The notes: generated by a model not told the origin, from the letters alone. A stretch of 64,000 nt of DNA from a virus (IMGVR_UViG_3300020187_001966), one strand, 5' to 3'; numbered from the stretch's first letter, positions 1,210-42,341 are shown. Program-made: numbers and translations.

Positions 1210-1756
1210 ACCAATAGGCATCCTGTACAGGGTCAACACTTAATTCATTTATATTAATATGTGCTGGTTGATCTATTATCCATTTAATGTAATCTGCGGC
1301 TGTATCAATCGCCATACATCGTCTATCAGGGTGTTTATGTTCATTATTACTAAGTGTACCAAAACTAATGTAGCTTACTTTGGGCATACGACTCCATACA
1401 CCTCCAATGCTAAGTGTATTACTGTAATCACGTAGTGCTTTCTTTTCAGCGTTGTATAACCAGGCCTTGCCGTTCTTAACACGGTCCGTGGTACTACCAA
1501 TGACTACTATATGTGCTAGTTTCTTGGCATCCTTTAGGCTCTTGTACACTGTATCTAGTAGCACAGTTTGTTGAAACTGCCATAGTGCGCTGTTAACTAT
1601 AATAACATCATGATTGAGTGCTTCAGCGGCAAATGCGTCTCTTCCTGATCTTTCTACCAAGTCATGTCCGGTACTTCTACTCATAAAAGTGGCATCTGGA
1701 TATAACTGGGATAACGATTGCGCTATCCCTTGTGTAGGATTACCTGATATTAGCAT
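1199..1756 (-). CDS. Short-chain dehydrogenase/reductase (SDR)-like protein
   Basis: N-terminal ISGNPTQGIA nucleotide-binding-like motif, IIVNS, IGS, catalytic YNAEK (YxxxK). Confidence 0.75.
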   Translation of the reverse strand: MLISGNPTQGIAQSLSQLYPDATFMSRSTGHDLVERSGRDAFAAEALNHDVIIVNSALWQFQQTVLLDTVYKSLKDAKKLAHIVVIGSTTDRVKNGKAWLYNAEKKALRDYSNTLSIGGVWSRMPKVSYISFGTLSNNEHKHPDRRCMAIDTAADYIKWIIDQPAHININELSVDPVQDAYWYAL

Positions 1757-2858
1757 TTATTATCTCCCATGCTTGTTTATTTACACTAGTAAAATCTGTT
1801 TTTTGATGTCGATCCATAATATTAATATAATCACGAGTTGTGGTTAACTGATTATCAATCGTAATGTCTGCTGTTAGTATGCGGTCTAACTCCGTGTTAC
1901 CAGTTACAAATTGTTCTCTAACTGATAATGGTAATTGATATATACTTAAATGTTTTGGAAACGTTAATTCACTAAACGAAACTTTTATATTGTAACGTTT
2001 AAGATAATCTTGTAATGTCCATAACTTATTAAAATTAAGTATACTTACTGTACAACTGGCGTAAAGATTAATGTCGGTTTCAGCAAAACGTCGAATGTTA
2101 CTGTCAATTGTATTCCAACTTATTCCAAACCTGGTGGTCTCTGCTAGCTCATGAGTGCCATCTAAACTAAATGATATAACACTGTTTGGAAAGTATTTTA
2201 ATTGTTGTATAACTTTTTCATCTGGGTATACACTACCGTTTGTTGTAATATTTAAAAATAGTTTATTAGGGGTCTGTACTTCTTGGTGTAGTTTATCTAT
2301 AAACCAACTTAAATGTTTAGCATAAAAAGGTTCGCCACCTTCTATTTTTATATGTCTGGCTTGACTTAAATCAGTATTACCCAACACCACTCGCATACGT
2401 TCTTGGTAATTACGGTAATTATTGGCTGGGTCATAATTAATACCAGCCGCATCTAACTCCGCCAACAAGCTGGAGTTATTCCATTTACTACTAGCACCAG
2501 GGTTACATATTTGGCATCTCATGTTACAGGTATAATCCAGTGCTATTTCTAAATCTTGTATAGTGGCTGGTTGGAATAAATTATGCTGTCCATAAAACTT
2601 ATTTGACCAAACTCTTCGACTTTCAGCACCACCTTGTTCTGCTAACTGACACATCTGACATCCACTGGGCCATTGCCCATGGTTAAGGTTACGTTTTATA
2701 TTATGATAAGGTGGTGTTTGATGTAACCCGTCTAAACTATCTATGTCAAATATAGTAGGCAAGTCTACAGGGTCTGAAAACTTACAACAAGGACGGACGG
2801 TGCCACCACTATCAACAACGCTAACGCCTACTTGGCTATGTACACAAAAATTAGTCAT
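1740..2858 (-). CDS. Radical SAM protein with N-terminal twitch domain
   Basis: FC...RPCC...CQMC N-terminal Cys set; CNMRCQIC; GGEP; TTNG; SLDG. Confidence 0.9.
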   Translation of the reverse strand: MTNFCVHSQVGVSVVDSGGTVRPCCKFSDPVDLPTIFDIDSLDGLHQTPPYHNIKRNLNHGQWPSGCQMCQLAEQGGAESRRVWSNKFYGQHNLFQPATIQDLEIALDYTCNMRCQICNPGASSKWNNSSLLAELDAAGINYDPANNYRNYQERMRVVLGNTDLSQARHIKIEGGEPFYAKHLSWFIDKLHQEVQTPNKLFLNITTNGSVYPDEKVIQQLKYFPNSVISFSLDGTHELAETTRFGISWNTIDSNIRRFAETDINLYASCTVSILNFNKLWTLQDYLKRYNIKVSFSELTFPKHLSIYQLPLSVREQFVTGNTELDRILTADITIDNQLTTTRDYINIMDRHQKTDFTSVNKQAWEIINANIR

Positions 2859-3979: not shown

Positions 3980-3984
3980 AATAT

Positions 3985-3992
3985 TACTTATA
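3985..3992 (-). promoter_or_regulatory. Late-promoter-like TATAAGTA (1 mismatch to the T4-type TATAAATA)
   Basis: Lies between the hairpin and ATG 3979. Confidence 0.4.
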
Positions 3993-3997
3993 CTCGT

Positions 3998-4713: not shown

Positions 4714-5916
4714 TTAACCAATAAGTTTATTGTTATAAACATAATCAGCAATTCTTGGTAGTTTTTTCTCACCAGTTTTAAAATAAAGTTGATCTTGCAA
4801 ACGTACAATTGTTTTAAATAGTTCAGCGTCAGCAGTTTGTGGTGTTTGCATGTACTTTATAATAGGATTATCAGGGCCATGCAATTCAGTTAAAAAGCTC
4901 TTGACATTATCTGGTAAATTTGCTATATCTAAACCTGCAGGATAGTGTACAAATGTGGCATCAGTATGAGCTGAAATGCCCATGGCTTGTATTTGGTCTA
5001 CTAATTTGTTTAAGTCGTGAAACGTCTCACTGGCGTAGAATGCATGGTAAGCGGTACTGGTACACACCAAGTATACACCAAGTATATTGCTACTTGCACT
5101 GAGTATTTTAAACAAGTTATCAACAACCTGATCGTAATCGCCACCTTGCCTAAAATAATTAAACAGTTCATGTGTGCCATCCATACTAACTGTTAAGTCT
5201 ACTCCACCAAAGTGGTTCCACAACTCACTTAGTTTATAACTCTTAAACTCTATCATACTCATGTTTGTGTTGTATGCAATAGTAAGTTTACTAGTATCAA
5301 TGTCTGGCTCACTGATAAGTCTCTCTAAAAAGCGATAATGTCCTATATGATATAATGGTTCACCACCACTAAATGTAATCCTTTTAACACCCTGAATTAT
5401 ATTTTGTATAATGTCTTCCAAATGTTCAGCGGTTATTGTTTGTATTGGTGAGTCAGCAGGTCCAATATGATCAAAGCCTGCACGTAACAACATTTCATGT
5501 GTTTCAGTATTTTTCTTGCCTAGTTGTTCAAACTGACTATTACTATCTGCCATACAGTGTCTACAAAAATAATTACAAGTACGACTAAATTTAAGTTCTA
5601 AATCTAGTATACCTGTTGAAACTGGAGTAGTATAGTCTATTGAACTGTCGTCCCAGTGTTTGTTATTGAGACTTTTTTGTCTATAACTTTTTACACCGTT
5701 TTCTTCTTTGTATTGGCAGTCTTCACATCCAGCTGGAAACTCGCCATTAATTAAGCTATTGCGCACTGCTAGCATATTTGGATGATTAACTGCTTCGCTT
5801 GGCAGTGTATCACGCATACTAGCAATAGGCTGACGTTTAACTTTGTATCTAAAGCAAGGTGCGTATTCTCCTTGAAGAAAGTCTAAATGACTCCAAGCAT
5901 ACTTACATTTCAGCAT
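4714..5916 (-). CDS. Radical SAM protein with variant N-terminal twitch domain
   Basis: KCKYAW...APCFR...CEDC (single Cys in place of CC); CNYFCRHC; SGGEP; YNTN; SMDG. Confidence 0.88.
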   Translation of the reverse strand: MLKCKYAWSHLDFLQGEYAPCFRYKVKRQPIASMRDTLPSEAVNHPNMLAVRNSLINGEFPAGCEDCQYKEENGVKSYRQKSLNNKHWDDSSIDYTTPVSTGILDLELKFSRTCNYFCRHCMADSNSQFEQLGKKNTETHEMLLRAGFDHIGPADSPIQTITAEHLEDIIQNIIQGVKRITFSGGEPLYHIGHYRFLERLISEPDIDTSKLTIAYNTNMSMIEFKSYKLSELWNHFGGVDLTVSMDGTHELFNYFRQGGDYDQVVDNLFKILSASSNILGVYLVCTSTAYHAFYASETFHDLNKLVDQIQAMGISAHTDATFVHYPAGLDIANLPDNVKSFLTELHGPDNPIIKYMQTPQTADAELFKTIVRLQDQLYFKTGEKKLPRIADYVYNNKLIG

Positions 5917-7393
5917 CTCTATGCTTCCTCATACCGTTCTTTTCAATTTCTCTAACATGCTTTTTTTGTAACCAACTTGATTCAACTCCACTTAGTTCTT
6001 GTACTAGTTCATGTATTTCTCGATGTCTCTGCAAACGTTCATCAAGAGTATTATCTCGATAACTCCAGTCATTGTCGCCTACACAGTCTATATAATCTGG
6101 ATCGTCCTTGAGCATTTTATATATTTTATAATCAGGTTGTATCAACATTGTATTTCCAAAACTTAAATATGCTGTACTAGTGCTATTTCCTCTAGGAGTT
6201 AAGTAACCTAATTCAGACATACGCTTAATACTAGCTAGTGTATGATGATGATCTTCAAGTGTTTCTGTTGGGTATCCAGTAATCATTAACAGTGTATAAT
6301 GTATGTTATACTTGTGCATCATTTCTAAATTCCACCACAAGTCATCATCAGTAAACTTTTTACCCATATGCCATCTGACACTTTCACTAAAACTTTCTAA
6401 TCCAATGTCTAATTCATTGACATTGCTCTGCTTCATAAGTTCAAAGTCTTCTTCCAACATTTGTCCACGGGCTCGGACAATCCACTGACTCCACCATTTA
6501 ATTTGATCTATGTCATATTTTTTGTCACTATTAAACTTTTTAATCATATCTAAAAATATTCTAAATTGACTCATGCTTCCATTTATTAAGCTATCTGTAA
6601 ATCTAAACATTCGTCTACCATACTCATGGTACAATAGCTCTACTTCACTGAAAAGATGCTCAGCACTCCGCCATTTGTATTTGGGCCACAGTAGTGGAAC
6701 ATCACAAAATGTACAACGCTTAACACATCCACGTGATCCTGTTACATATATAGGTGCATATTGCGCTTCAAATTCATAATGTGTCCAGTTTATATCACTG
6801 TAGTTAGGCATTAATATTGTGTTTAAATCTTCAACTTGATGAGGGTACCGACTATTAACTCCAGGTGCTTGTGTATTACCTTTTAATAATTCCACAATGC
6901 TAAATTCACCGTCACCAAATATAAAATAATCTATCCATCCTTCATCAAGCCACATTTGATTTTCTTTACGCACAGCAGCGCCGCCAATAACTATTTTTAT
7001 TTGTGGTGCATGCTCACGTAATAATTCACACATTTTCCTACCAACGCAAACACTAGCACTACTCAACATACTTAATCCTACCCATGTGGGATTTATATGT
7101 TTAATTTCCTTTATCCAATCCAGCAACTTAGGTTCAATGACATCATACAGTTCATACCATTCTTCAGGGTATACAAATTTGCGATCAAACCAAGTAATAA
7201 ATCCACTATCGTCATCATGAAAATATTGTTCGTGAAGACCTTTCTTTTTAAGCCAGTTATACAAGTCAATATTATAGTCACGTACTGTGGCTGTCAAGCC
7301 ACCAGCTTCACAATGTGATTTTAATAGTGCTGGACCAGTCGTTGGTGCGAATGGTTCTAGCTTGGGTATAATCGCAAATAAAATATCTATCAA
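5903..7393 (-). CDS. Cobalamin-binding radical SAM protein (class B methyltransferase-like)
   Basis: N-terminal B12-binding-like Rossmann region (PTTGPALLK...VGLS...IVIGG...GDGE); SRGCVKRCTFC; GLES; ITGYPTET. Confidence 0.88.
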   Translation of the reverse strand: MIDILFAIIPKLEPFAPTTGPALLKSHCEAGGLTATVRDYNIDLYNWLKKKGLHEQYFHDDDSGFITWFDRKFVYPEEWYELYDVIEPKLLDWIKEIKHINPTWVGLSMLSSASVCVGRKMCELLREHAPQIKIVIGGAAVRKENQMWLDEGWIDYFIFGDGEFSIVELLKGNTQAPGVNSRYPHQVEDLNTILMPNYSDINWTHYEFEAQYAPIYVTGSRGCVKRCTFCDVPLLWPKYKWRSAEHLFSEVELLYHEYGRRMFRFTDSLINGSMSQFRIFLDMIKKFNSDKKYDIDQIKWWSQWIVRARGQMLEEDFELMKQSNVNELDIGLESFSESVRWHMGKKFTDDDLWWNLEMMHKYNIHYTLLMITGYPTETLEDHHHTLASIKRMSELGYLTPRGNSTSTAYLSFGNTMLIQPDYKIYKMLKDDPDYIDCVGDNDWSYRDNTLDERLQRHREIHELVQELSGVESSWLQKKHVREIEKNGMRKHRDAEM

Positions 7394-8073
7394 ACAAGTA
7401 ATTCCTCAACTGTGCCTTCAAAGTTTATAAGTAAACCCATCTTCCATGGACCAACTAACTTTCCAGTACAGTGTAGGTTATTACTGTTAAAAACTACCAT
7501 ATTACCTGGACGCCAATCATATGCTGTGCCAGTTAACCCATGAAATAGTTCTGGTGTGTGGTTATTAAACTCTAAATAGTCACTATAAAACTTTTCGTCT
7601 ATTGGATCTTCAGTACAATCATATACTCTTGGATCTTCGTATGGTGCCATTGGTACTTTTTTATTACGATCAAAATTGTAGTTGTTGATATCTTTGCGTT
7701 TACCATACCAAGTTTGTCCAAACCCATTGTCAGTATACTGGTCAAACACCATGAAGTGTTGTGGTGGATCTGTTACTTCCAGATGTATTGGAATGTTTAC
7801 GTTAATCATTTGTGTGGGCTCATCACTATCAACGTGTAGACTGTACAAGTTGGTGTGCCGGTATATATTACCGCCACTGCCTTTATTTGGATTAAAATAC
7901 TTGCTTACTATTGGTCTTAATAAGTCCTCTAAGTGTCGCCAAGGATGATTAATTTTAATTACATTTGGATTGTTGGGTTTGTGTATCTGTAAATCAGGAT
8001 TATTGTCAAAGAAATCTTTAATCTCTCGACAGACTTCTAAAGGTATAGCATTTTCAAATACTGTGTGTTTCAT
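7390..8073 (-). CDS. 2OG-Fe(II) oxygenase-like protein
   Basis: LHVD (HxD)...NIPI...GNMVVFNSNNLHC (distal His) double-stranded beta-helix pattern. Confidence 0.65.
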   Translation of the reverse strand: MKHTVFENAIPLEVCREIKDFFDNNPDLQIHKPNNPNVIKINHPWRHLEDLLRPIVSKYFNPNKGSGGNIYRHTNLYSLHVDSDEPTQMINVNIPIHLEVTDPPQHFMVFDQYTDNGFGQTWYGKRKDINNYNFDRNKKVPMAPYEDPRVYDCTEDPIDEKFYSDYLEFNNHTPELFHGLTGTAYDWRPGNMVVFNSNNLHCTGKLVGPWKMGLLINFEGTVEELLV

Positions 8074-9193
8074 ATAATTTCTCGTGTAATAAGGGGTTAG
8101 CGTCCTTCAATGGGAGGCTATAATAGTCATCTAGTAGTTTAGTATTATTTAATAACTTTTGCCATTCGTCTTTATTATATACACTATTACTTATATAATT
8201 TTCTATCAGCTTAGTGGCAAATACGTGATCACGATTTTGTTCTAGTACCCAGTCTTTAAAACTTTTAGGTGCTATGCTTAAACTTTGCCATAATGGATCA
8301 CGTACCCAGTCTACACTAACGTCATTGTTTTCCTCATCCATTAAAAATTTGAGTGTTGTTCCAAGTTTGTCTGCTGTATATACACTAACAACTGTGTGAA
8401 AGTTTACATGACTGTTTGACAATTGACCTCGATACCATAGAGCATTTTTATATACATCTGTATATACACCTCCTACACGTTGGTAATCGTTTACAGGATG
8501 CCAAGCATCTAAACTTACATTTATTTCTATTTTACCGAATTGTTTTAATTTATTTAATAACTCTGGTCGTGGTTGTTTACTGCCATTTGTGCTTATTTGT
8601 AGACGTATGTTATCAAACTTGGCTCCTTTAGATGACAAATAGTCCAAGAAAGGTCCAAAGTTTGGACTCATAAATGGCTCGCCACCCAGTAGTTTTATAT
8701 ATTCTAAATTACTTAAATCTTTATCATCAAATTTAGTAAAGTTTGGTTCTAGTTTCTTATGTATACGCTGTCCCATATATGCGTCACGCTTTTGTAATTG
8801 ACTACTAAACTTACTATCACACATACGGCACTGGAAATTACACAGGTTGTCTATGCTCATTTCTATATAACGTATACAGTCTGGGTCATCTGTTAGCGTA
8901 TTTTTATCAATATGTGGAAACAAACTGTTCATCCAGTGACGTAAACTTTTACTACGCTTGTGTCCTTTAAGTACACGCTCTTGTTCATAGCATTTAGTAC
9001 ACTCTGCTCTAGGCTTATTAGATAACATATCACTACGAAGTTGTTGCCAAAATTCTGTACTCATATCAAAGTTGTCTAGTGTTGGAGCAGATTCAGCATC
9101 TCCCTCACTATATTGAAATCTACAACAGGGTTTGATCTGCTCATTGGGACGTACACAAACATGAACCCAAGGTAATACGCACCATGTACTCAT
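8054..9193 (-). CDS. Radical SAM protein with N-terminal twitch domain
   Basis: WCVLPW...KPCC...CTKC; CNFQCRMC; GGEP; STNG; SLDA. Confidence 0.92.
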   Translation of the reverse strand: MSTWCVLPWVHVCVRPNEQIKPCCRFQYSEGDAESAPTLDNFDMSTEFWQQLRSDMLSNKPRAECTKCYEQERVLKGHKRSKSLRHWMNSLFPHIDKNTLTDDPDCIRYIEMSIDNLCNFQCRMCDSKFSSQLQKRDAYMGQRIHKKLEPNFTKFDDKDLSNLEYIKLLGGEPFMSPNFGPFLDYLSSKGAKFDNIRLQISTNGSKQPRPELLNKLKQFGKIEINVSLDAWHPVNDYQRVGGVYTDVYKNALWYRGQLSNSHVNFHTVVSVYTADKLGTTLKFLMDEENNDVSVDWVRDPLWQSLSIAPKSFKDWVLEQNRDHVFATKLIENYISNSVYNKDEWQKLLNNTKLLDDYYSLPLKDANPLLHEKLYETHSI

Positions 9194-19765: not shown

Positions 19766-19985
19766 TATCCAGCACTAACTTTATGTCTTTACCAGGACCA
19801 TACTTGCTGGGCAAGTCGCCATATTCTTCTACGTACCATTCAATTACAGCACAATACCATTTTTGACTGTCGTGGTGTGCCAATTTGTTAAACTTGTAAA
19901 TGTTGTTATTAGTTGCTGACATTGTACTTAGAGCTCTAGCACTTTCAGTTTGTAACTGTCGCAATGTTAAATCATTTATATCCAA
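19758..19985 (-). CDS. Hypothetical protein (75 aa)
   Basis: ORF tiles between its neighbours with short overlaps. Confidence 0.7.
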   Translation of the reverse strand: MDINDLTLRQLQTESARALSTMSATNNNIYKFNKLAHHDSQKWYCAVIEWYVEEYGDLPSKYGPGKDIKLVLDNE

Positions 19986-30877: not shown

Positions 30878-30904
30878 ACTCTCGATAAACTTTAATTATC
30901 TGTC

Positions 30905-31519: not shown

Positions 31520-32475
31520 TCCACTCTCAATACTGGTTCTTGTAATACACTATCCCAGTCAATATCTGCCTTGTTTGTACAAGTACCCAATGGTATTTTA
31601 CCAATACAAAAAGGATCAGTTGGTACTCCATGATCAATTAGCCATTTTTGAAATTCTGGGTGTTTTAATACTTCAACAGTCATACTGTTAGGTTGTAATT
31701 CCCAACCTGGACAGTAAGTTTTGTCAATATTTGTTATATCAAATTGAGCAGGATTATCCATATTTACCCAACATGTATAATACTCTTTACCTAGTACAGC
31801 AAATGGTAACCAAAGATCAGGTTCTGTATCGTAAGTACATAAACTACGCAATGTGTTGTCAATTTCGAATACATCAAAAGCAGTATCTTTGCCACTAGTA
31901 TATCTTTGAATGATGTGCCGGCCATCATTAATATCATAACCCCATGCCCGTAATTCATTAACTCTTGGACTATTGACCGTTTCTTCATACCAATGTATAT
32001 CACAGTTCATTTCAAATAGTATTCTTGTAACATCAGCATTTGTATCTTGTGGTACTACAAACTCAGGAGTATGATCTTTATCAGGATTATAATTTTGCCA
32101 GTGATTCCATTTACTATCAATAATAGATTCTAGACTAGCATTAGGTAATTCCCAATTAGTTTTAGTAAACGCACCATGTGTTATCCACATGTGTAATTGA
32201 TTTAATCGTTGTTGCGATACTACACTTGATCCCATTTTACCAGGAAAGTTTATATTGTATTTCAGTTTAAGCTCGTCAACATGCGCATCAAATTTTGCGC
32301 TATACTTGTTTCTAATCTGGTCAACTTCTGCTTGTGGCATTGTAACTTCAGGGAATACATTTTCATTCCAGGTAGATATAGGATCAAGATTACTCACAGT
32401 GTCAAGCCAACTATCCACAAATTTGTTTCGAATAAGTTCAATCTCAACAACACCACTTTTAAAATGTATTTTCAT
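31510..32475 (-). CDS. Hypothetical protein, His/Glu family member B
   Basis: IELIRNKFVDSW, NQLH, NCDIHWYE, GKEYYTC..MDNP, IPLG. Confidence 0.75.
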   Translation of the reverse strand: MKIHFKSGVVEIELIRNKFVDSWLDTVSNLDPISTWNENVFPEVTMPQAEVDQIRNKYSAKFDAHVDELKLKYNINFPGKMGSSVVSQQRLNQLHMWITHGAFTKTNWELPNASLESIIDSKWNHWQNYNPDKDHTPEFVVPQDTNADVTRILFEMNCDIHWYEETVNSPRVNELRAWGYDINDGRHIIQRYTSGKDTAFDVFEIDNTLRSLCTYDTEPDLWLPFAVLGKEYYTCWVNMDNPAQFDITNIDKTYCPGWELQPNSMTVEVLKHPEFQKWLIDHGVPTDPFCIGKIPLGTCTNKADIDWDSVLQEPVLRVEWK

Positions 32476-33080
32476 TTAAAGTCCTTTACATAACTAATGT
32501 CAGGATATGTATGACTTCCAGCGCAATCTGCGTTGTTGTCTGATAGTACTTGTAGTCTACTTAATCCAAGTTCAGCAGTTTCTGGTGTCATAAAATAATG
32601 CCACCCAGCGAACGTTATATTATCATCTTCATAAGGCACACTCATATCTCTACCATCATGTACTGCCCGTTGGCACCAATCATAAAAGTTTTTATCATCA
32701 GTTAGTATCATTCCACCACGTATTGTACTTAATATCTTCTTAAACTGGAAACTTAAACACTGACTGTTACCAGACTGGTAACAATTACGGTAAAGTCTAG
32801 CTGCGCTATCCACAACATTAGTATTACCGATATTATAGCACCCACTCCACACTTTGTCAATAAAATTTACGTCTAGATCTAAATGAAGTGCTTGCATTGC
32901 TACACTAACATATGTGTTTTTAGGTAGAGATATATAGTTTAGATCTGGGTTTTGCTGTTTATAGTAATACAGACTTAGATAAATTGCGTGTGAACAACAA
33001 TCAGTTGCTGTGGCATACGGCGCACCTGTATACTCTGCAATCTGAGATTCAAACTCATGTACTAAATCAAACGGATTCAT
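32472..33080 (-). CDS. DegT/DnrJ/EryC1/StrS sugar aminotransferase, short form
   Basis: FESQIAEYTG...A.DCCSHAIYLSL, DSAA, SFQFKKILSTIRGGMILTDD. Confidence 0.85.
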   Translation of the reverse strand: MNPFDLVHEFESQIAEYTGAPYATATDCCSHAIYLSLYYYKQQNPDLNYISLPKNTYVSVAMQALHLDLDVNFIDKVWSGCYNIGNTNVVDSAARLYRNCYQSGNSQCLSFQFKKILSTIRGGMILTDDKNFYDWCQRAVHDGRDMSVPYEDDNITFAGWHYFMTPETAELGLSRLQVLSDNNADCAGSHTYPDISYVKDFK

Positions 33081-33901
33081 ATGCTTACTCTTTGTATAAC
33101 TTTATTACGTAATATTTGTTCCATATGGTCAGGTTTATTTCTAATATTGCCAATTGGTATTCTTCCTATATTATTTGCTGTAGGCTCTACTGGCAAATGA
33201 TGTATGAAATCTGGTAGTTGCCACAAATCTTTCCATTGATTTAGTGGATCTATTTCCATTGCTAATGGGATGCGATTGCCAATTGGTTTCATTTCACTGT
33301 GATTAGGATTATCATTGTCCCTGTAAGTCTCTCTATAATCTTTACCAAGTATACGTTTAGCAAGATATACATCGTGTTTTTCTAATGTCATTAATTGTAA
33401 CCATTCATCTGTCATCTTAAGAGCATACTGCCCTGCATTTTTAACTTGTTGATCCCAGTAAATGTTACTACAACTATCAGGTAATTTTCTAGTACCACCT
33501 ATAAGTAATGCTTCACACTGATGGCACAGGCTGTTAAGTTTTCCTATGTACTGAACATCTTTAGCATAATCAGGATAATTTTGATTAGCATGTTTACTTT
33601 CTACTAGCTCTACACACCAATGATGTAAGTTATTCATAAGTTGCTGTAAAATATCAGGTTTATTATAGTCTGACACTTGTATTTCTGTACCATTATAATA
33701 ACGTATACCTTCCATCAATTCAGCATATAGTGTAGTAAATTTTTGTTGATCAAACTCAGTGCTTCTATTTTCTATTGAACTTATTTCTGTTACATTTAAC
33801 TCATGCTTAGAAAATTCAGTTGCCCAATTATGTATAAGTGGACTATCAATTAGCTCTATAACAAGTTGTGTATCATCGTTAAGATGTAATATCATTTCCA
33901 T
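33077..33901 (-). CDS. Hypothetical protein, His/Glu family member C
   Basis: IELIDSPLIHNW, NNLH, NSLCHQCE, GKDYRET..DNDNP, IPIG. Confidence 0.75.
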   Translation of the reverse strand: MEMILHLNDDTQLVIELIDSPLIHNWATEFSKHELNVTEISSIENRSTEFDQQKFTTLYAELMEGIRYYNGTEIQVSDYNKPDILQQLMNNLHHWCVELVESKHANQNYPDYAKDVQYIGKLNSLCHQCEALLIGGTRKLPDSCSNIYWDQQVKNAGQYALKMTDEWLQLMTLEKHDVYLAKRILGKDYRETYRDNDNPNHSEMKPIGNRIPLAMEIDPLNQWKDLWQLPDFIHHLPVEPTANNIGRIPIGNIRNKPDHMEQILRNKVIQRVSI

Positions 33902-34259
33902 CTTTATCTACCTTTACAATTGGCGGGTTGCTATCGTGCCATCTTTTTGTAAGCATACTAACAAACTTAAAGTCAGTCAGTGCTATAAATGTGTGTGCTG
34001 TTCCAATTGGTATACGTATACTATCACCAGTTGTTAATACTATTTCATGTATAGTGTCACTATACTCTTTAAATAAACACTCGCCGTCTACAATAACCAT
34101 ATACTCATCAAAATGAGGATGGTAATGATAACCACGAGCATCTCCCTGTTTTGTAATCATTAAGTTGTATTCTACTATGTTGTCATCTGGATAGAAACTA
34201 CGAATAGTACCTCTGTGATCTTCAAACAGTTCTGCTTCAAGTACTTTACACTTATCCAT
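33879..34259 (-). CDS. Cupin, RmlC/FdtA/WxcM-like sugar epimerase or isomerase
   Basis: FEDHRG, RGYHYH...E, IPIGTAHTF cupin motifs. Confidence 0.8.
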   Translation of the reverse strand: MDKCKVLEAELFEDHRGTIRSFYPDDNIVEYNLMITKQGDARGYHYHPHFDEYMVIVDGECLFKEYSDTIHEIVLTTGDSIRIPIGTAHTFIALTDFKFVSMLTKRWHDSNPPIVKVDKDGNDITS

Positions 34260-35050
34260 TATAATCGCATGCCTTTAAATACAGTTTTCTTAAATAGTTT
34301 ATTTTCTTTATCAATATACTCAAACAGTTTACTTGGTATTCCTAGTTTCTTACATGCGTTGTTCATTGCTAATACATCCTTGGGTAAACAAGCACCGCCA
34401 TATCCTCTGAGTTCTGGCTTAACATCTAAATATTCATCTGGTAAATCACTATTACGCAGAAATGCTGACTTAACATTGTCATAGTTAGCGCCTAAACTGT
34501 TACTTATTTCAAACATAACATTAGAAAATACTACCCGCAACGCATTGAATGTATTGTGATAATATTTCATTAGTTCTGCTTCCGTGGGAGTAACTCTCAT
34601 TATATCTTCTGGCAGTTTTCCATGCGATCGTTGAACAAGATAATAGTGATTAACATTTTCAGTACCCACTAATAATAATCTATGGTCAAACACAAAGTCA
34701 TATTCCGCACTGCGTTCCTTTAGAAACTCTGGTACAAACACAATTCTATCATCATACTGCGCAATTAATCTTTGAGTTGTTCCAGGTGATACTGTTGACT
34801 TGATACCGATAACACCTTCGTAATTTGCTTGTTGTAATTCAGCAATAACACTTTCTACGATACGTGTGTCGCACTCTCCTTGATCGTTAGTAGGTGTAGG
34901 CACACACAGATACACAATCTCTGCTTCTAACAAATCTTCTATCTTTGTGCCGAGTGTAATGTCATGTGGTATAACTGTGTACCCACAATGTTCAAAGCCT
35001 GTCTTACATGCTTTGCCTACTACTCCTAAACCTACTATTCCTATTTTCAT
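34259..35050 (-). CDS. UDP-glucose/GDP-mannose 6-dehydrogenase family, short form
   Basis: GLGVVG, CVPTP, KSTVSPG, PEFLKE, AELMKY, GYGGACLPKD (catalytic Cys). Confidence 0.9.
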   Translation of the reverse strand: MKIGIVGLGVVGKACKTGFEHCGYTVIPHDITLGTKIEDLLEAEIVYLCVPTPTNDQGECDTRIVESVIAELQQANYEGVIGIKSTVSPGTTQRLIAQYDDRIVFVPEFLKERSAEYDFVFDHRLLLVGTENVNHYYLVQRSHGKLPEDIMRVTPTEAELMKYYHNTFNALRVVFSNVMFEISNSLGANYDNVKSAFLRNSDLPDEYLDVKPELRGYGGACLPKDVLAMNNACKKLGIPSKLFEYIDKENKLFKKTVFKGMRL

Positions 35051-35796
35051 TTTATCATGTGCCTAACTGTATAATTTATTTCTGCTAATTTAATTGAATC
35101 ATTCTTGAAATAATCATCAACTGTTGCCTTTACCATTGGGAAGTGTCCATAATCATCTAAAATCAGATGTCCGTTTTTTACTAGTTTTGGATAAAAGTGA
35201 TTTAATACATGTCTAGTTGGTTTAGCTAAATCTACATCTATACGTAAAAGAGCAATACTAACAGGAGAATTAGCAGGAATAGTATCTTCTACTATACCTT
35301 CTATAAATCTGACTTGGCCTAGATAGTTACATTCAGCAAAGTTTTGCTTAACATCTTGTAATGAACTATAGCACCAGTTACTGTTACCAAAGCTATCTAC
35401 TTTTTGTTCCACATACCAATCTCTTAAATTTTCGTTCTCTTTTGTAAGTTCGTTGGCTTCAGGAATAGGCACACCACTAAACGTATCATACATCCATATA
35501 TCACGCTCTTGCTTGTAGTGTTTTAAAACTTCAGCCATAATCATACAACTGCCGCCCATAAAGACTCCGCATTCTACAAAATCTCCTGGTATATCATTCA
35601 AAATAATATTTTCAACTGTATCTATTAAATCTAAAACTACTGACAACTTCGTAACAGTAAATGGGCTACACTGGTAAGCAATTTCTTTCTTCCACTGTTC
35701 AATACTTAAAGGTGTTAGCTCGTCTTGCCAACGGTAACTTACATCTCTATAATCATTTTTATACTTACGACTTTGTCTTTCCATTATGATTTCCAT
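35047..35796 (-). CDS. TylF/MycF/NovP-family sugar O-methyltransferase
   Basis: GDFVECGVFMGGS, YDTFSG, LRIDVD, LILDDYG. Confidence 0.9.
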   Translation of the reverse strand: MEIIMERQSRKYKNDYRDVSYRWQDELTPLSIEQWKKEIAYQCSPFTVTKLSVVLDLIDTVENIILNDIPGDFVECGVFMGGSCMIMAEVLKHYKQERDIWMYDTFSGVPIPEANELTKENENLRDWYVEQKVDSFGNSNWCYSSLQDVKQNFAECNYLGQVRFIEGIVEDTIPANSPVSIALLRIDVDLAKPTRHVLNHFYPKLVKNGHLILDDYGHFPMVKATVDDYFKNDSIKLAEINYTVRHMIK

Positions 35797-36305
35797 TTTA
35801 CACTACATCCAAAACTAGGGTTAGGTTCCCATGTAATAGGTTTATCTATTAATGTCAAGTCTAATGCGTGTCGTAAACTACTGCCAGTTGGCATTAAATC
35901 ATTACTAGTATGACTAGGATCTAATTCGCCATGATAAACAACTATGCTTTTTTTGTCTAATATGTAAAACTCAGGAGTACATACTGCGCCGTAAGCACGA
36001 GCAATACTTTGATCTTCATCAAATATATAATCGCACTGTAGGTCATACTTTTCACTAAACGCTGGCATGTATTCAGGCGCATCTTGTAAATTGCTATCAT
36101 CGGTTGTTGGACTTGCGTCATTACTATTAACTGCTACAATGTTTACACGATCCCGATAGTCTTTAACAAGCTGACTAATAGCTGGCATTCTGAATAGCAC
36201 ATAAGGACAATGATTACATATAATCATAATTAAATTAATCTCGTCAGGCTCGCAAAGTGTGCTAATGCGATGCCCCATCATACTGTCGCTAATTTCTAAA
36301 GACAT
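35784..36305 (-). CDS. Thioredoxin-fold/AhpC-TSA redoxin (likely start ATG 36305)
   Basis: CNHCPYV, VNSND, YGAVCTPEFY, GCSVKW. Confidence 0.85.
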   Translation of the reverse strand: MSLEISDSMMGHRISTLCEPDEINLIMIICNHCPYVLFRMPAISQLVKDYRDRVNIVAVNSNDASPTTDDSNLQDAPEYMPAFSEKYDLQCDYIFDEDQSIARAYGAVCTPEFYILDKKSIVVYHGELDPSHTSNDLMPTGSSLRHALDLTLIDKPITWEPNPSFGCSVKWKS

Positions 36306-37138
36306 GTCTTTAATCCTGTTCTCAAATCTGTCCATTCAAAGTCGGGAACAAATTTGTGTAGTTTAGTTAAGTCGGGTGCTCTGCGTGGAGTGCTTCCTGG
36401 AGGACTATCGAGTAATTCAAACTGGTTGCTTAACTCTAATAGATCTACAATAATGTTAGCAACATCTACAATTTTACTCTCTGTTGGAGATCCAATATTT
36501 ACAATTTGATTTTTTTGTTCTAGCATTTCAATTGTAAGTTTTACCGCATCGTCTATATAACAAAAGCTTCTAGTATCGTCCCATCCATATAGACGGTTAT
36601 CGCCTTGTTGTATACGTTCAATAAACTCTGGAATAAAATGATTCTCTTGTCCAGGCCCATATATATTATGAAAGCGTAATATAGTATATGTATTACTATA
36701 CTGTGCGCTATGACTAATAACAGCACTCTCCATGGCAATTTTGCCACTGGCATAACACCAACGTGGATTTGTAATATCGTCTATTGACAGCGCAACATCT
36801 TCAGGAGTAGGTACACTAGCCCATCCACGATTAACTGTTCCAGCATACTCTTCACTGCTACCAGCATATACAAAATGTGCGTGTGGGTAACGTTTGAGTA
36901 AGTTCATTGTGGGTGTAACAATACTGTCAATAACACTAAATGGTGTGCTATAAAAGTTCTTTGTGCTGTTAAATGCCGCTAAGTGTATTACTGTATCTAC
37001 ATCTGGTAACGAGTTTACAAATGTAGGGTCACTTAGATCGCCATTGTAATCACATCCATTATAGTCTACAGTAATACACTTAATGTTTTTTTGCAAATGC
37101 TTGCCGATAAAGCCATTTGCTCCAGTGAGTAATATCAT
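36296..37138 (-). CDS. NAD-dependent nucleotide-sugar epimerase/dehydratase
   Basis: TGANGFIG, HLAA, SSEEY, YASGK (YxxxK), RFHNIYGP, RSFCYIDD. Confidence 0.9.
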   Translation of the reverse strand: MILLTGANGFIGKHLQKNIKCITVDYNGCDYNGDLSDPTFVNSLPDVDTVIHLAAFNSTKNFYSTPFSVIDSIVTPTMNLLKRYPHAHFVYAGSSEEYAGTVNRGWASVPTPEDVALSIDDITNPRWCYASGKIAMESAVISHSAQYSNTYTILRFHNIYGPGQENHFIPEFIERIQQGDNRLYGWDDTRSFCYIDDAVKLTIEMLEQKNQIVNIGSPTESKIVDVANIIVDLLELSNQFELLDSPPGSTPRRAPDLTKLHKFVPDFEWTDLRTGLKTCL

Positions 37139-38386: not shown

Positions 38387-39671
38387 CCCAATAGTTCTCC
38401 CAAATGTAGCTTAATTCTGGAAACACGGAACGAGTATCTTCTCCGTGTAGATCGTCTAAAATTTTATTATGTTTACACATTTCTCGTAAACTATCCTCAT
38501 TACATGACACACTATTCATCCATTTAATGGAAGCATGTATTGTGCTGTACACTTTACTATGTGGTTTAACATTAAGATGCTTTAAATGATCTATCCAAAT
38601 TTGTTCTACTTCCTGTTTCATATGATCTGGGAAATTTTGAACATTATAAAAGTCTGGGTTATTTAATATATTCCAGAACATATTGTGGGGCTCAACCCAT
38701 CCATTTTCTATCCATTGTCGATTAAGTTCGCACACTGTATACGCATTAAGTATTTGTATAGTTGGACTTATGCCAACTTTAACATGCGGTGTTTCACTTT
38801 TTATAAGTGCCATATGATCCTGTATATCGCTCCATACAGTATCTTTGCGTATGTTTTCTGCTCGAGTTCCGAATGTATCAATACTACCTGCGCAATATAC
38901 ATTACTAAAATGCTTCCATATGTCAACAATTTTTGTTTTCTTAAATTTCATAATACTTAGGTTAGTACTATATCTAATATGTACGTCAGTTAGTTTTAAT
39001 TCAATCAACTTATTTAAAAGTTTGTAATGCTCTTCCATAAACAATGGTTCACCACCAGCAAAATAAATCTCTTTCATATGTGGCAAATATTCCTCTAGTC
39101 TATCAAGTAGGGTATCACTGTCTTCTACCCCTTTGATGATAGCTATATTCGAATCTGTACCATAATTATAGATACCTTTTTCTTTTAGTTTTTTACTATC
39201 CCCAAACCATTTACTACTACTAAAATGTCCACACATCTTGCATCGCATATTACAAATATTGCTAAATCTTATATCTAAATATACTGGCTTTGCGTTTGGT
39301 GATGTTCCATCCTCTTGTGTAGTTATAACCATGTCTTTTGCTGTCTCATGAAACTTGGCAATTGCATCATGTCGCAAACTAAACCCACTTTGTTGTTCTT
39401 TAACATAGCACGTTCTACAATGCGGTACCTTTTTATCTTGAATTAGTGCTTTTCTTAACTTTTTAAATTCTGGGCCTGCCCATATATCATCAAAACTTTG
39501 CTTATTAATGTTTCCCATTGGGCGTTCCCAATCGCCGATACAACATGGTAATACTTTGCCATCTGCAGCAACATGTAAATGATTCCATAACAATGGGCAA
39601 TAGCTGTCTGTTTTTTCAATTATATCGCTAGCAGACGCATTGTTTTGTATTAAGTCTATAATCTTATTCAT
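38370..39671 (-). CDS. Radical SAM protein with N-terminal twitch domain (likely start ATG 39671)
   Basis: YCPLLW...LPCC...CRTC; CNMRCKMC; AGGEP; YSTN; SIDT. Confidence 0.93.
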   Translation of the reverse strand: MNKIIDLIQNNASASDIIEKTDSYCPLLWNHLHVAADGKVLPCCIGDWERPMGNINKQSFDDIWAGPEFKKLRKALIQDKKVPHCRTCYVKEQQSGFSLRHDAIAKFHETAKDMVITTQEDGTSPNAKPVYLDIRFSNICNMRCKMCGHFSSSKWFGDSKKLKEKGIYNYGTDSNIAIIKGVEDSDTLLDRLEEYLPHMKEIYFAGGEPLFMEEHYKLLNKLIELKLTDVHIRYSTNLSIMKFKKTKIVDIWKHFSNVYCAGSIDTFGTRAENIRKDTVWSDIQDHMALIKSETPHVKVGISPTIQILNAYTVCELNRQWIENGWVEPHNMFWNILNNPDFYNVQNFPDHMKQEVEQIWIDHLKHLNVKPHSKVYSTIHASIKWMNSVSCNEDSLREMCKHNKILDDLHGEDTRSVFPELSYIWENYWDDTTN

Positions 39672-41133
39672 AACATTTCCTATAATATTCTTCAAGTTCA
39701 GGAAACACGTCTACAAATTTCGTGTTTCGCCTGGCATCTATTGTGTCAATAAATTTTCTAAAGTTGGCCCGGTGTACTTTATTATCTTCATCTGAGCTAT
39801 AGTAACAAGAATCGACAACTCTTCCCATCTTCTCTGCTTCGTAATCATAAAACGCTCGGTTGTCTTGACCTGACGTAAGATTTTCCATCATAAAATTATA
39901 TTGGTCCCAGGCATATGGCATAACTAATTCCTTTGGGGGAGTTGCTAAACTTAAAAACGGAGGAAACGTGATAGGGCTAATATCCACGTGAACAGCACAC
40001 GGCTTATCGCCTCGTACAAAATTGTCTATTAAATTATTTTTCAAGAAAAACTCTGAGTACTGTGTGAATCTACCGTTATATCTGTTTTTAGATTTTTTAA
40101 CTTCTAATATTTTTTCTAGGAACTGACCATAGCTAGGTACACTTAATACACTATACGCTGACATTATTGTATTGTCAACTGTTGGATGTGTTTCTATTAG
40201 ATACATTAACCTATCCCACAACATATTAAAGTCTAGTCCACTACGAATGTATTCTGCTTGTTCGCCCCAACCGTCTAAACTAGTGTATAGTGTAATTTTC
40301 TTTACTAGGTTCTCTTGCTCATTCTTCTTGATAAATTCAATCAGTTTTTGCCATGCTTGCTCTGGAGCGTTTAAGTTAGTGTTAATACCTAGCTCAAGAT
40401 CTGGCATTGGGTGTTTTTCAATTTCATTTAGCAGTTTAAAAGTGTCTTTACTCATTAGCGGTTCACCGCCAGTAACTCTAAGAGTTTTTAAAGTTGTCCT
40501 GAGATCAGGCCACCATTTCCAAAATGCTTCAACATATGGATTATTTTGGTTGTGTGGTATTGGCAATTCGTTTATTGACTCTAAATATCCTAGACTATGG
40601 TAGTCCCAAGTAGGTTCTTTAGATTGAGCGTCAGTAAGCATAATAGATTCATTTTGTTGTTGTTCCTGTTGCCATTTACTGCTAAAGTGTGGACCACAGT
40701 ATGTACATTTTAAATTACATGCGTTACTAAAACTAACTTCTACGTATTGTGGAGTATGGTCATCTCCTGTACCGCTTTGTACAATTGTATCAAAACGATC
40801 TTCAAACAAGTTAGCACTTTTTAAATATCGATCGCTAACTGCTTCTTTATTACTATCTTCCATTTTATAACAAAAGTTACATGGGCTAGGACGTTCACCA
40901 TTTAACATAGCCTTACGTTGAGCTATTTTTTCACGACTATTATGAATTGCTTTATAATTTTGTGATATTTCTTCTAATGAAATTTTATGAGGCGCTGGAT
41001 GGTGACAACTGTGTGTCATACCGTTATGCAAATGCATAGTTACTTGATCCCATTTAGCTAAACAAAATCCACTTCCAACCTTGTTTAACTTGTCCTTCAT
41101 ATCTAATGCTCGTTGTAATTCATTTTCATTCAT
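39664..41133 (-). CDS. Radical SAM protein with variant N-terminal twitch domain
   Basis: FCLAKW...HSCHHP...CNFC; CNLKCTYC; TGGEP; NTN; SLDG. Confidence 0.9.
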   Translation of the reverse strand: MNENELQRALDMKDKLNKVGSGFCLAKWDQVTMHLHNGMTHSCHHPAPHKISLEEISQNYKAIHNSREKIAQRKAMLNGERPSPCNFCYKMEDSNKEAVSDRYLKSANLFEDRFDTIVQSGTGDDHTPQYVEVSFSNACNLKCTYCGPHFSSKWQQEQQQNESIMLTDAQSKEPTWDYHSLGYLESINELPIPHNQNNPYVEAFWKWWPDLRTTLKTLRVTGGEPLMSKDTFKLLNEIEKHPMPDLELGINTNLNAPEQAWQKLIEFIKKNEQENLVKKITLYTSLDGWGEQAEYIRSGLDFNMLWDRLMYLIETHPTVDNTIMSAYSVLSVPSYGQFLEKILEVKKSKNRYNGRFTQYSEFFLKNNLIDNFVRGDKPCAVHVDISPITFPPFLSLATPPKELVMPYAWDQYNFMMENLTSGQDNRAFYDYEAEKMGRVVDSCYYSSDEDNKVHRANFRKFIDTIDARRNTKFVDVFPELEEYYRKCYE

Positions 41134-42341
41134 TGTTGTAAGGCTTTCTGCCGCATAGACGAAAGGTTACCGAGACTAACATTTGGTCTATCAAAAATAG
41201 GATCTTTAAGATGATCTAAAAATGTTTGATGATCTGGATGCATGTCTTTCCAAATACATTTTTCATTATACTCTTCAGGGTTCCACGTTCCCCAATCACT
41301 AACCATGCTAAAACAAATTTGATGATGGTTCGGATACATTTCTGTCACTAATTCAATATACTGTTTCATTTCTTTATAGTTGTCATATTGTACAACAAAA
41401 TCATATATAATCCTAAAGTTTGGAAACTCTGCTCTTTTTCCATCTAAAAAAGTACAGTTACTAAGTAGAAGATCCCAGTCGCCATTTAACCGAGTTTTAT
41501 TTTCATACGTGTCTTTAGTGGCTGCATCAAAACTAATTCTACAGTCAGTTAAATTATTATGTATATTACTAATACGATTCCATAATTTAGGAGTATACAT
41601 AACACCATTTGTTTGCATAGAGATAGATAAGTTTGGAAAATCTTTGCCGTTTAAATTGTAAAGCATATCCCTATAAATCTTACTAGCCCATGGATCACCA
41701 CTACCAGTTACAAATATGCCAAAGTGTCTATCTGTAGGAGTAGTTAAAAACATCTCAACCATTTTATCATTGATTGCTTTTCTTTTTTCATACAGTGGTC
41801 CACTAGTGTATAGTAATTTAGTAGTTCTACAGCTTGGACATTTTAAATTACAACTTTCATCATTACTAAAATTAATATACGTTGGCATTGCTGTACTTTT
41901 TAAGTCTTTTGTTTTAAGAGCAACTAATTCATGCTGATGTACTGTATGTTTTTCATCTAGAATATCTTGAATGTTTGGTAGATTGTTACTTTGTATTACA
42001 GGACAAAAACTAGCTTGACAATAGTTCCATTCGCCGTTAAATATTTGCTTACGTAACTCTTGAGCTCTAGGCCCATTCCATATTTCTTCTAAAGTATCTT
42101 CTAATACATTACCAATTGGATAAGGTAACCAACTTGGACAACACATCCAGCATCTACCATGCATATCTACTTCTAGCCATGTATATAGTTTATTACAGTA
42201 TTTTCCTTTTAGATTATGTTTGCCATAATCTAAACCTTGAGTATCTTTAATCCACACATTTCCAAATAGTGGATGATGCATATGTCCAGACGCTTTAGAC
42301 GACCATGGTTGATGATGTGGTGATGTCATTTTTTGTTCCAA
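41130..42341 (-). CDS. Radical SAM protein with variant N-terminal Fe-S domain (alternative start ATG 42329)
   Basis: YC...CWMCCP...CQASFCP; CNLKCPSC; GSGDP; QTNG; SFDA. Confidence 0.88.
   Translation of the reverse strand: MEQKMTSPHHQPWSSKASGHMHHPLFGNVWIKDTQGLDYGKHNLKGKYCNKLYTWLEVDMHGRCWMCCPSWLPYPIGNVLEDTLEEIWNGPRAQELRKQIFNGEWNYCQASFCPVIQSNNLPNIQDILDEKHTVHQHELVALKTKDLKSTAMPTYINFSNDESCNLKCPSCRTTKLLYTSGPLYEKRKAINDKMVEMFLTTPTDRHFGIFVTGSGDPWASKIYRDMLYNLNGKDFPNLSISMQTNGVMYTPKLWNRISNIHNNLTDCRISFDAATKDTYENKTRLNGDWDLLLSNCTFLDGKRAEFPNFRIIYDFVVQYDNYKEMKQYIELVTEMYPNHHQICFSMVSDWGTWNPEEYNEKCIWKDMHPDHQTFLDHLKDPIFDRPNVSLGNLSSMRQKALQQ

Follow-up and report, generated by a model that had tools for sequence, protein, structure and literature searches.

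A 64,000-nucleotide stretch of DNA (the window) from the viral sequence IMGVR_UViG_3300020187_001966 was analysed for an array of eleven genes encoding radical S-adenosylmethionine (rSAM) enzymes. The window corresponds to bases 25221-89220, read on the reverse strand, of a 150,961-bp IMG/VR virus record, rated 41% complete by CheckV, and its minus strand carries every gene of note. The source is an uncultured marine T4-like giant phage, and a widespread one, since the exact protein encoded by one of the genes, 15562, is recorded in 40 blocks of the assembly collection. A preliminary description had reported eleven rSAM open reading frames (ORFs) in which a Cys module lies N-terminal of the CxxxCxxC core. 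All eleven were found to be intact minus-strand ORFs of 359-489 aa with that order of motifs, and each is named here by the coordinate of its stop (low) end. The copies and one related ORF are listed with their lengths and their scores against the NCBIfam model NF033640 (N_Twi_rSAM), for which the curated cut-off is 170 bits.

1740..2858, minus strand: N_Twi_rSAM copy 1740; 372 aa, 197 bits
2855..4012, minus strand: N_Twi_rSAM-like copy 2855; 385 aa, 161 bits over the full model length, all seven Cys present
4714..5916, minus strand: N_Twi_rSAM copy 4714; 400 aa, 224 bits, single-Cys variant PCF as in the known twitch enzyme BtrN
8054..9193, minus strand: N_Twi_rSAM copy 8054; 379 aa, 236 bits
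10610..11689, minus strand: N_Twi_rSAM copy 10610; 359 aa, 219 bits
13486..14853, minus strand: N_Twi_rSAM copy 13486; 455 aa, 365 bits
15562..16965, minus strand: N_Twi_rSAM copy 15562; 467 aa, 413 bits, conserved anchor of the array
25522..26913, minus strand: N_Twi_rSAM copy 25522; 463 aa, 225 bits
38370..39695, minus strand: N_Twi_rSAM copy 38370; 441 aa, 367 bits, most canonical twitch
39664..41133, minus strand: N_Twi_rSAM copy 39664; 489 aa, 307 bits, single-Cys variant SCHH
41130..42341, minus strand: divergent relative 41130; 403 aa, 61 bits, N-terminal SPASM-like module and rSAM core
26910..27947, minus strand: Cys-less twelfth paralogue; 345 aa, 33 bits at model positions 187-397 only, no Pfam match

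The eleven copies lie in one co-directional 43-kb block, several of them adjacent with overlapping stop and start codons. When the whole record was searched, it gave 17 matches, all within or touching this block, which holds ~19 genes of the rSAM superfamily in its 43 kb. Beyond the eleven copies, these are the Cys-less twelfth paralogue, four rSAM genes lacking a twitch domain (twitch-less), two B12-binding rSAM genes (B12-rSAM) and one rSAM gene past the window edge. The Cys-less ORF, a full-length paralogue that the model matches in its C-terminal half only, has lost every cluster Cys (all seven) and kept the C-terminal YFPELKRIL tail, and its stop overlaps the start of 25522; it could encode a non-catalytic partner.

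In a hidden Markov model search of NCBIfam, nine copies passed the NF033640 cut-off with 197-413 bits, and for ten ORFs this model was by far the best match, across its whole length. The score of 2855 fell just under the cut-off and that of 41130 far under it, yet the match of 41130 spanned model positions 3-335; by the curated rule, these two sequences are family-like and not members. The preliminary description had named the right family, with nine ORFs above the cut-off and 2855 and 41130 closest to it, and its portrayal of that family as uncharacterised and known mostly from uncultured aquatic sequences also stands. NF033640 is a "subfamily" label without a function, and we know of no characterised member. 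In the literature searched, the NF033640 family and an N-terminal twitch are named in no paper, and rSAM genes receive only passing mention, in two phage papers.

Pfam Radical_SAM (PF04055) scored above cut-off in nine copies; 25522 and 41130 gave no PF04055 match and keep CxxxCxxC. Pfam SPASM (PF13186) matched the N-terminal part of six of the eleven (residues ~7-110, E down to 1e-16), among them 38370 (residues 33-97, E 1e-16) and 41130 (residues 49-109, E 3e-10). Before the core there are 4-5 conserved Cys, fewer than the 7-8 Cys and two auxiliary clusters of a full SPASM domain, and no Cys downstream of the core is conserved from copy to copy. Upstream of CxxxCxxC, which is present in 11/11, the pattern is Cys-x(14-18)-C(C) ... 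CxxC in ten copies and CxxCC ... CxxxxC in 41130. GGE occurs in ten copies and is invariant in the ten-copy alignment, with SGD at the aligned position of 41130. The ligand variants noted previously are real, namely PCFR in 4714, SCHH in 39664, where the CC pair is without its second Cys, and CWMCC in 41130. A shared C-terminal motif, D..R..SF...FPEL, had also been described; it is general only in part, the full form D..R...FPEL being found in ~5/11 copies and its Pro in 8/11.

Conservation was assessed across 539 family sequences, comprising 434 from related loci (423 from the loci and the eleven window copies) and 105 database representatives. The related loci are 160 regions of +/-10 kb, each anchored on a 15562 orthologue, of which 80 are phage and 80 cell-labelled. 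All seven Cys are present in 91% of the sequences and the CC doublet in 92%. The four twitch Cys are individually 94-99% conserved, the three core Cys and the E of GGE 99%, and both G of GGE 100%. GGE, N252, S275 and R287 are found in 99-100% of the set and S102, R104, R77 and E96 in 92-95%, while the D, R and P positions of the C-terminal motif are 85-87% conserved.

The N-terminal twitch domain and its relation to BtrN

SPASM and twitch domains are described as C-terminal extensions (PMC9012708). In BtrN, the founding twitch enzyme (2-deoxy-scyllo-inosamine dehydrogenase, butirosin; PDB 4M7S/4M7T), four Cys bind the auxiliary cluster, which probably takes up the electron in the two-electron alcohol oxidation of a sugar-like substrate (PMC9012708). 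When the whole PDB was searched with phmmer, residues 25-115 of 38370 matched BtrN alone (E 3.3e-4). The alignment places the first Cys of 38370 on the first twitch Cys of BtrN, LPCC on LPCF and CRTC on CKNC, with all four ligands aligned. Because the second Cys of the CC pair falls on a BtrN Phe, the first Cys of the pair was assigned as the ligand, and 4714 (PCF) and 39664 (SCH) can therefore lose the second; PCFR of 4714 itself aligns with LPCF of BtrN.

The fold of 15562 was predicted with AlphaFold2 at a predicted local distance difference test score (pLDDT) of 88.9 and a predicted TM-score of 0.89 for the full-length protein, and at a pLDDT of 87 for the first 130 residues alone. In the full-length model, strands 13-16 and 21-23 lie between the first and the second Cys, and helices follow as far as C89/C92. 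Among 48,161 PDB chains, the isolated N-terminal domain had BtrN residues 163-248 as its sole match at Z>=2, a weak one (Z 3.5, rmsd 4.2 A, 83 residues aligned). BtrN was likewise the top Foldseek row, with a weak E of 0.8, and a profile of the N-terminal domain of the 15562 clade gave no match in the PDB. The sequence search and the fold search, made with different copies (38370 and 15562), thus single out the same protein. That the N-terminal Cys sets are twitch domains had been proposed in the preliminary description, and they behave as such, BtrN being the sole PDB match by sequence and by fold; judged by the alignment of the four Cys, the N-terminal module is very probably a real twitch domain. 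The eleven genes should accordingly be read, from their motifs, as two-cluster rSAM enzymes of the N-terminal-twitch family, with a predicted auxiliary [4Fe-4S] cluster fully ligated by four Cys.

The likeness to BtrN covers a homologous twitch with the same C-x17-C ... CxxC ligand pattern, in an enzyme whose substrate, an aminocyclitol, is carbohydrate-like. The order of domains is permuted: the twitch of BtrN follows the core (163-248 of ~250 residues), whereas that of the phage copies precedes it. The phage proteins are also 100-240 aa longer, with an extra helical C-terminal region, and the cores are not specially alike, BtrN lying outside the top 50 core fold matches of 15562. The same end-to-end layout as in the phage copies is found in NF033640, with an N-terminal four-Cys twitch, a CxxxCxxC core and a helical C-terminal region. 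Radical SAM epimerases use a Cys as hydrogen-atom donor. By analogy, the near-universal second Cys of the CC pair, absent in BtrN, 4714 and 39664, could be such a donor.

The core of 15562 (residues ~132-427) is a generic rSAM barrel with no close solved structure, and CteB, BlsE, DesII, SkfB, viperins, SuiB and anSME tie as its fold matches at Z ~11. The SPASM peptide maturases in this group (CteB 5WGG/5WHY, SkfB 6EFN, SuiB 5V1Q and anSME 4K36) align over ~220 residues of core at rmsd ~4 A, and Pfam SPASM, the model of their auxiliary domain, matches the phage N-terminal module. They differ from the phage copies in that their auxiliary domain is C-terminal and, in CteB, SuiB and anSME, binds two auxiliary clusters through 7-8 Cys, compared with 4-5 Cys in the phage proteins. 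Maturases of peptides that are ribosomally synthesised and modified after translation (RiPPs) also have an N-terminal RiPP recognition element (RRE), whereas the phage copies gave no Pfam RRE match and no precursor gene was found. DesII (8HZV) and BlsE (7VOB) stand level with the peptide maturases (Z 11.5-11.6) and act on NDP-sugar or nucleoside-sugar substrates like those that the surrounding island should make; identity to the phage core is 12-18%, and neither enzyme has an N-terminal twitch.

Origin of the array

Selection was measured for three of the eleven copies. The ratio of nonsynonymous to synonymous rates (dN/dS) was ~0.05 for 15562, compared with orthologous DNA, and 0.15 for 25522, compared with its orthologue in one related locus (L070). 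For 13486, the nonsynonymous proportion pN was 0.17-0.26 against a saturated synonymous proportion pS of ~0.79. A dN/dS near 1, the sign of pseudogenisation named in the preliminary description, was therefore not seen in 15562 or 25522, and pN was below pS in 13486.

Pairwise identity among the eleven copies is 15-34%, with 13486 and 15562 the closest pair at 34%. A profile of ten copies, searched against 1.84 billion representatives, retrieved 7,980 clusters (at 50% identity) at E<=1e-30 and 15,825 at E<=1e-10. Each of the 100 nearest ESM Atlas clusters among the matches listed belongs to a set whose listed members are 97-100% viral. A tree of the window copies and 105 single-domain representatives dispersed the window copies, with 15562, 13486, 38370 and 4714 in different well-supported clades. 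Six window copies have their own sister outside the window, such as 8054 with representative P0035 (88% identical) and 39664 with P0049. Forcing the eleven into a single clade cost 2,160 log-likelihood units and was rejected by the approximately unbiased (AU) test (p 3e-5), which was eased by the presence of near-orthologue representatives in the tree.

Related phages carry different sets. Orthologues of 15562, at 40-88% identity, were found on 97 IMG/VR contigs, with up to seven family genes within 21 kb of the orthologue, mostly 22-45% identical to any window copy. Even in phages whose 15562 orthologue is 80-88% identical, the neighbouring family members are mostly non-orthologous to those of the window. 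At 40% identity, the 434 family genes of the 160 loci and the window form 113 clusters. For eight of the eleven window copies, these loci contain no relative at >=40% identity, while 13486 clusters at that threshold with genes of 23 phage and 21 cell-labelled loci, and 15562 is the only widely shared copy. Its orthologues at 51-64% identity lie on contigs of 0.2-3 Mb, mostly from Bdellovibrionota, including the cultured Bdellovibrio sp. HCB2-146, and also in genomes of the candidate phyla radiation (CPR); these Bdellovibrionota and CPR contigs hold one to seven family genes per 21 kb. Among cultured phages, a tblastn search with 15562 reached only 21-22% identity (Ralstonia phage RsoM2USA and Vibrio phages K566 and K567) and found no close relative.

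The array is, to judge from these comparisons, a mosaic of old, separate subfamilies and not the product of a local burst of duplication, because identity between copies is 15-34%, their positions in the tree are scattered and the sets in related phages are non-orthologous. Repeated duplication and divergence inside the phage lineage, as the preliminary description had proposed, would suit the single co-directional 43-kb block with its overlapping neighbours, as well as 13486 and 15562 being the closest pair (34% identity). It is nevertheless extremely improbable when set against the low pairwise identity, the six sisters outside the window (one at 88%), the four copies in separate well-supported clades, the AU rejection of one clade, helped though it was by near-orthologues, and the eight copies without a >=40% relative in loci that hold 113 subfamily clusters. 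The preferred reading of the array as a mosaic would have a conserved core, made up of the glycosyltransferase-like 21042, 19972, the twitch-less rSAM 17773 and N_Twi 15562, common to marine T4-like phages, Bdellovibrionota and CPR, with other copies swapped between lineages around it.

Island neighbours and candidate substrates

When the window proteins were compared with those of the 160 loci, the recurrent core around 15562 consisted of 17773, 19972 and the family of 21042 and 42345. The neighbouring genes of the island are as follows.

535..1239, minus strand: short twitch-less rSAM, 234 aa; Pfam Radical_SAM 28.6 bits (gathering cut-off 29.5), weak NCBIfam matches only
5903..7393, minus strand: second B12-binding rSAM, 496 aa; precomputed Pfam B12-binding and Radical_SAM, NCBIfam sub-threshold
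9927-10664 and 14897-15562: further PP-loop ATPase-like proteins; weak Pfam matches
12609..13529, minus strand: twitch-less rSAM, 306 aa; Pfam Radical_SAM, best NCBIfam match STM4011-like at 63 bits, below cut-off
16955..17776, minus strand: PP-loop ATPase-like; weak Pfam QueC, PP-loop and NAD_synthase, no NCBIfam match
17773..18891, minus strand: twitch-less rSAM, conserved partner of 15562, 372 aa; Pfam Radical_SAM
18848..19765, minus strand: twitch-less rSAM, 305 aa; Pfam Radical_SAM E 3e-10, no NCBIfam equivalog
19972..21042, minus strand: conserved partner with no Pfam match, 356 aa; five N-terminal repeats of ~20 aa
21042..21752, minus strand: divergent glycosyltransferase family 2 (GT2)-like (GT-A) protein, conserved partner; by homology to a member in a related locus (L141)
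21902..23473, minus strand: carbamoyltransferase (NodU/CmcH type); Pfam Carbam_trans_N E 3e-35, Carbam_trans_C E 5e-51
23403..25529, minus strand: B12-binding rSAM, probable methyltransferase class, 708 aa; Pfam B12-binding and Radical_SAM
28978..37138, minus strand: NDP-sugar tailoring block; Pfam
42345-43325: paralogue of the GT2-like 21042, same family

In order of transcription, the gene for baseplate wedge gp25 is followed by those for a 1179-aa and a 3589-aa protein, unknown genes, and then 41130, 39664 and 38370. The NDP-sugar block, the Cys-less copy, 25522, the B12-rSAM gene, the carbamoyltransferase gene and the core block from 21042 to 15562 come next. Down to 535, the run ends with rSAM genes alternating with PP-loop genes; a nitroreductase-fold gene is placed between 4714 and 2855. 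All three PP-loop genes adjoin an N_Twi gene. By Pfam, the NDP-sugar block encodes a sugar C-methyltransferase, a DegT fragment, a cupin/3,5-epimerase-like protein, a UDP-Glc/GDP-Man dehydrogenase, a TylF O-methyltransferase, an AhpC-like protein and an NAD epimerase/dehydratase. The DegT aminotransferase ORF (32472-33080, minus strand; 202 aa) matches only the N-terminal part of the Pfam model and the dehydrogenase ORF (34259-35050, minus strand; 263 aa) is without its C-terminal domain; these may be truncated, split or unusually short forms. The nitroreductase-fold flavoprotein (4043-4675, minus strand) and the AhpC/peroxiredoxin-like protein (35784-36335, minus strand) lie within an island of oxygen-sensitive Fe-S enzymes and may serve the rSAM set as electron donor and oxidative-stress guard. 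For 23403, NCBIfam gave PhpK-type and RiPP C-methyltransferase models as the best matches, none of which reached its cut-off.

Homologues of 17773 occur in 33 phage loci at >=60% identity and in 45 cell-labelled loci at >=35%. Those of 19972 occur in 70/80 phage loci (23 at >=40% identity) and 25 cell-labelled loci, and co-occur with the 15562 orthologue, including in Bdellovibrionota. The N-terminal repeats of 19972 are five copies of LRxAxxxxNLxSxFRL, and its conserved C-terminal domain has invariant D219/D221, N282-T-S-x-E-H287 and Q307/N309; searches of Pfam and of PDB sequences gave no Pfam match and no credible PDB match for it. Homologues of the 21042/42345 family were found in 50/80 phage and 25/80 cell-labelled loci. 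One of them, from a Bdellovibrionales metagenome-assembled genome (L141:11382-12929, minus strand), is a 516-aa tandem duplication of the domain. Over the DxD region, its second copy scores 29.8 bits against Pfam Glycos_transf_2 (cut-off 23.3), while its first is unrecognised by Pfam, and three other members gave sub-threshold GT2 matches. Through this homology the family is classed as a divergent GT2. Against PDB sequences it gave no credible match, and an Atlas look-up for 21042 produced weak GT-A leads only (0.83-0.87).

The commonest neighbours in the cell-labelled loci are two twitch-less rSAM families (45/80 and 41/80), followed by GT2 (23/80). Those in the phage loci are twitch-less rSAM (75/80), a 219-aa family (34) and a QueC-like PP-loop family (33), with several clusters of Asp/Asn beta-hydroxylase-like (Asp_Arg_Hydrox-type) neighbours. 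The 15562 orthologue of Bdellovibrio sp. HCB2-146 lies among four GT2 genes, two of which overlap N_Twi genes. Beside that cluster is a giant protein with a Peptidase_S74 domain (L164 17278-21377, minus strand; 1959 aa as called); homologues were found in two other loci only, L114 and L162, and a general association with fibres was dropped. About 30 database representatives (within P0001-P0032) were each called as one ORF, 770-1200 aa long, that joins two complete N_Twi modules, and P0009 joins one N_Twi module to two twitch-less cores. Five representatives are fused to TPR or Sel1 repeats and one to an FkbM methyltransferase; some of these fusions may be gene-calling artefacts. The N_Twi fusions lend support to a shared pathway of radical enzymes.

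The position of the island and the motifs along it bear on the time of expression.

63404..63769, minus strand: baseplate wedge gp25; Pfam GPW_gp25 E 2e-9, upstream anchor of the co-directional run
63775-63782, minus strand: T4 late-promoter-type TATAAATA, just upstream of gp25
49096..49103, minus strand: T4 late-promoter-type TATAAATA, island head, at the end of the 3589-aa gene
22551-22558, minus strand: T4 late-promoter-type TATAAATA, inside the carbamoyltransferase gene
4703-4710, minus strand: T4 late-promoter-type TATAAATA, 28 nt before the nitroreductase gene

The motif TATAAATA is strongly depleted, with four sites in 64 kb, all on the coding strand, compared with 14 expected by shuffling; 100/100 shuffles gave >=4 sites. 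The pattern would fit a motif kept for late promoters. By these candidate promoters, the island is probably expressed late. Two libraries labelled metatranscriptomic covered window 1-20000 at a flat depth of ~25, with contigs up to 8.7 kb, a picture suggestive of carried-over DNA, and a third RNA run yielded just four pieces of 154-185 nt, on 15562 and 17773; this material was not accepted as evidence of transcription. In its setting, the island was compared with the host recognition cluster, the hypervariable island of marine T4-like pelagimyophages and cyanomyophages (PMC7029224). The island described here follows gp25 and two giant structural-type proteins, and PMC7029224 identifies neither the rSAM family nor the permuted architecture and copy number of that family.

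The best explanation of the array is that its enzymes tailor sugars or a glycan by radical chemistry, a reading on which our confidence is evenly divided. It is favoured because the twitch is specific to BtrN, NDP-sugar genes are present and GT2 partners recur in phages and bacteria. By analogy with BtrN, the 5'-deoxyadenosyl radical would take one hydrogen from a substrate C-H, and the auxiliary cluster would accept an electron from the substrate radical to leave a ketone. Where a copy has the additional Cys of the CC pair, quenching of the radical might instead come from the opposite face, giving epimerisation, and dehydration or C-C chemistry could follow. From the genomic context, the substrate would probably be a sugar that the surrounding island builds, whether in nucleotide-activated form or as part of a glycan. 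The island would supply an NDP-sugar dehydratase/epimerase, a dehydrogenase, an aminotransferase, C- and O-methyltransferases and a carbamoyltransferase, together with the divergent GT2, the PP-loop ATPases, the two B12-rSAM methylases and the four twitch-less rSAM enzymes. It is plausible that each paralogue handles its own sugar or position. The place of the island after the baseplate genes, and its T4-type late-promoter motifs, make it probable that the product is formed late, for the virion or the surface of the infected cell.

Several points weigh against an assignment to sugars. It draws on gene neighbourhood alone, no family member having a known substrate, and the genes with clear sugar annotations are 12-20 kb away from the conserved 15562 core, none of them having been seen within the +/-10 kb loci of other phages. 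The 21042 and 42345 proteins of the window itself have no Pfam glycosyltransferase match, in structure the twitch gives a weak match (Z 3.5), and late expression is deduced from motifs. The core folds tie between peptide maturases (CteB, SkfB, SuiB and anSME) and BlsE, DesII and viperin. Asp/Asn beta-hydroxylase-like genes are common in the phage loci, and several representatives carry fused TPR or Sel1 repeats, typically protein-binding elements.

In the foremost alternative, the enzymes modify a peptide or protein, whether a virion fibre, a baseplate protein or a RiPP-like product. Like most SPASM/twitch enzymes, they would then epimerise or oxidise their target or introduce thioether or C-C crosslinks, while the B12-rSAM enzymes added C-methyl groups, the hydroxylase-like neighbours added OH and the sugar genes glycosylated the same target. 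EpeE joins the four maturases among the core fold neighbours, the TPR or Sel1 fusions number five, and Asp_Arg_Hydrox-type neighbours recur in several phage clusters. RiPP C-methyltransferase models are among the best NCBIfam matches of the B12-rSAM proteins, beside PhpK and lipid models, a nitroreductase-fold gene lies within the array, and the giant 3589-aa and 1179-aa proteins are encoded just upstream. The twitch, however, matches specifically that of an aminocyclitol enzyme, and GT2 is the commonest non-rSAM neighbour with an assignable family. No Pfam PqqD/RRE match was obtained in the ten copies scanned, and 41130 matched SPASM only. The only small ORF, 19758-19985 (75 aa), was rejected as a RiPP precursor, having no homologue in the 160 related loci, and no leader peptidase or exporter was seen; a precursor encoded farther away, or a large protein as substrate, would be compatible with these negatives. 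On balance, a peptide or protein substrate is a serious but less likely alternative.

Action on nucleotides or on DNA or RNA bases, where the enzymes and the QueC-like PP-loop proteins would build a hypermodified base in the manner of QueE/QueC and 7-deazaguanine, is very unlikely: rSAM genes do alternate with PP-loop (QueC-like) genes at 9927-17776, QueC-like neighbours do recur in 33/80 phage loci, MoaA, viperin and QueE models are among the weak secondary matches, and the invariant R104 and R287 could bind phosphates, but the PP-loop matches are weak and partial with none in NCBIfam, the Bdellovibrionota chromosomal context is one of glycosyltransferases, and a post-baseplate position with late-promoter motifs is ill-suited to DNA modification, which must act during replication.

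Meaning for the family and its carriers

The family was already catalogued as NF033640; the window contributes a new set of members, recognised by their sequences, to which no chemistry has been assigned. What is new is the direct sequence link between the twitch and BtrN, with its assignment of ligands, the family-wide conservation figures, the conserved four-gene core with the identification of its GT2, and the evidence from fusions, which cuts both ways. The family is large, mostly from phages and without a characterised member, and the window is one of its richest natural sets. Its eleven intact and mutually distant members, with their likely partners, come from a phage whose exact proteins recur in many ocean samples. 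They form a compact, expressible panel for new radical chemistry on sugars (or proteins), and they bear on why a phage of the aerobic ocean spends ~43 kb on oxygen-sensitive enzymes. Because carriers of the family among the Bdellovibrionota include a cultured strain, knock-outs could be made in a tractable organism.

Radical SAM enzymes carry out chemistry beyond the reach of ordinary enzymes. With tailoring of sugars as the preferred function, a broader proposal can be framed, which we consider unlikely: N_Twi_rSAM could be a very large, mostly viral combinatorial radical toolkit that writes lineage-specific, radically edited glycans on attack surfaces. If so, T4-like marine phages, predatory Bdellovibrionota and episymbiotic CPR, all of which live on other bacteria, would exchange single members as cassettes around a fixed core. 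Members with CC would be mostly epimerases, whereas dehydrogenase activity would fall to the rare BtrN-like members with CF, 4714 among them. The resulting glycans, epimerised, oxidised or C-branched, would be placed on virion, fibres or envelope.

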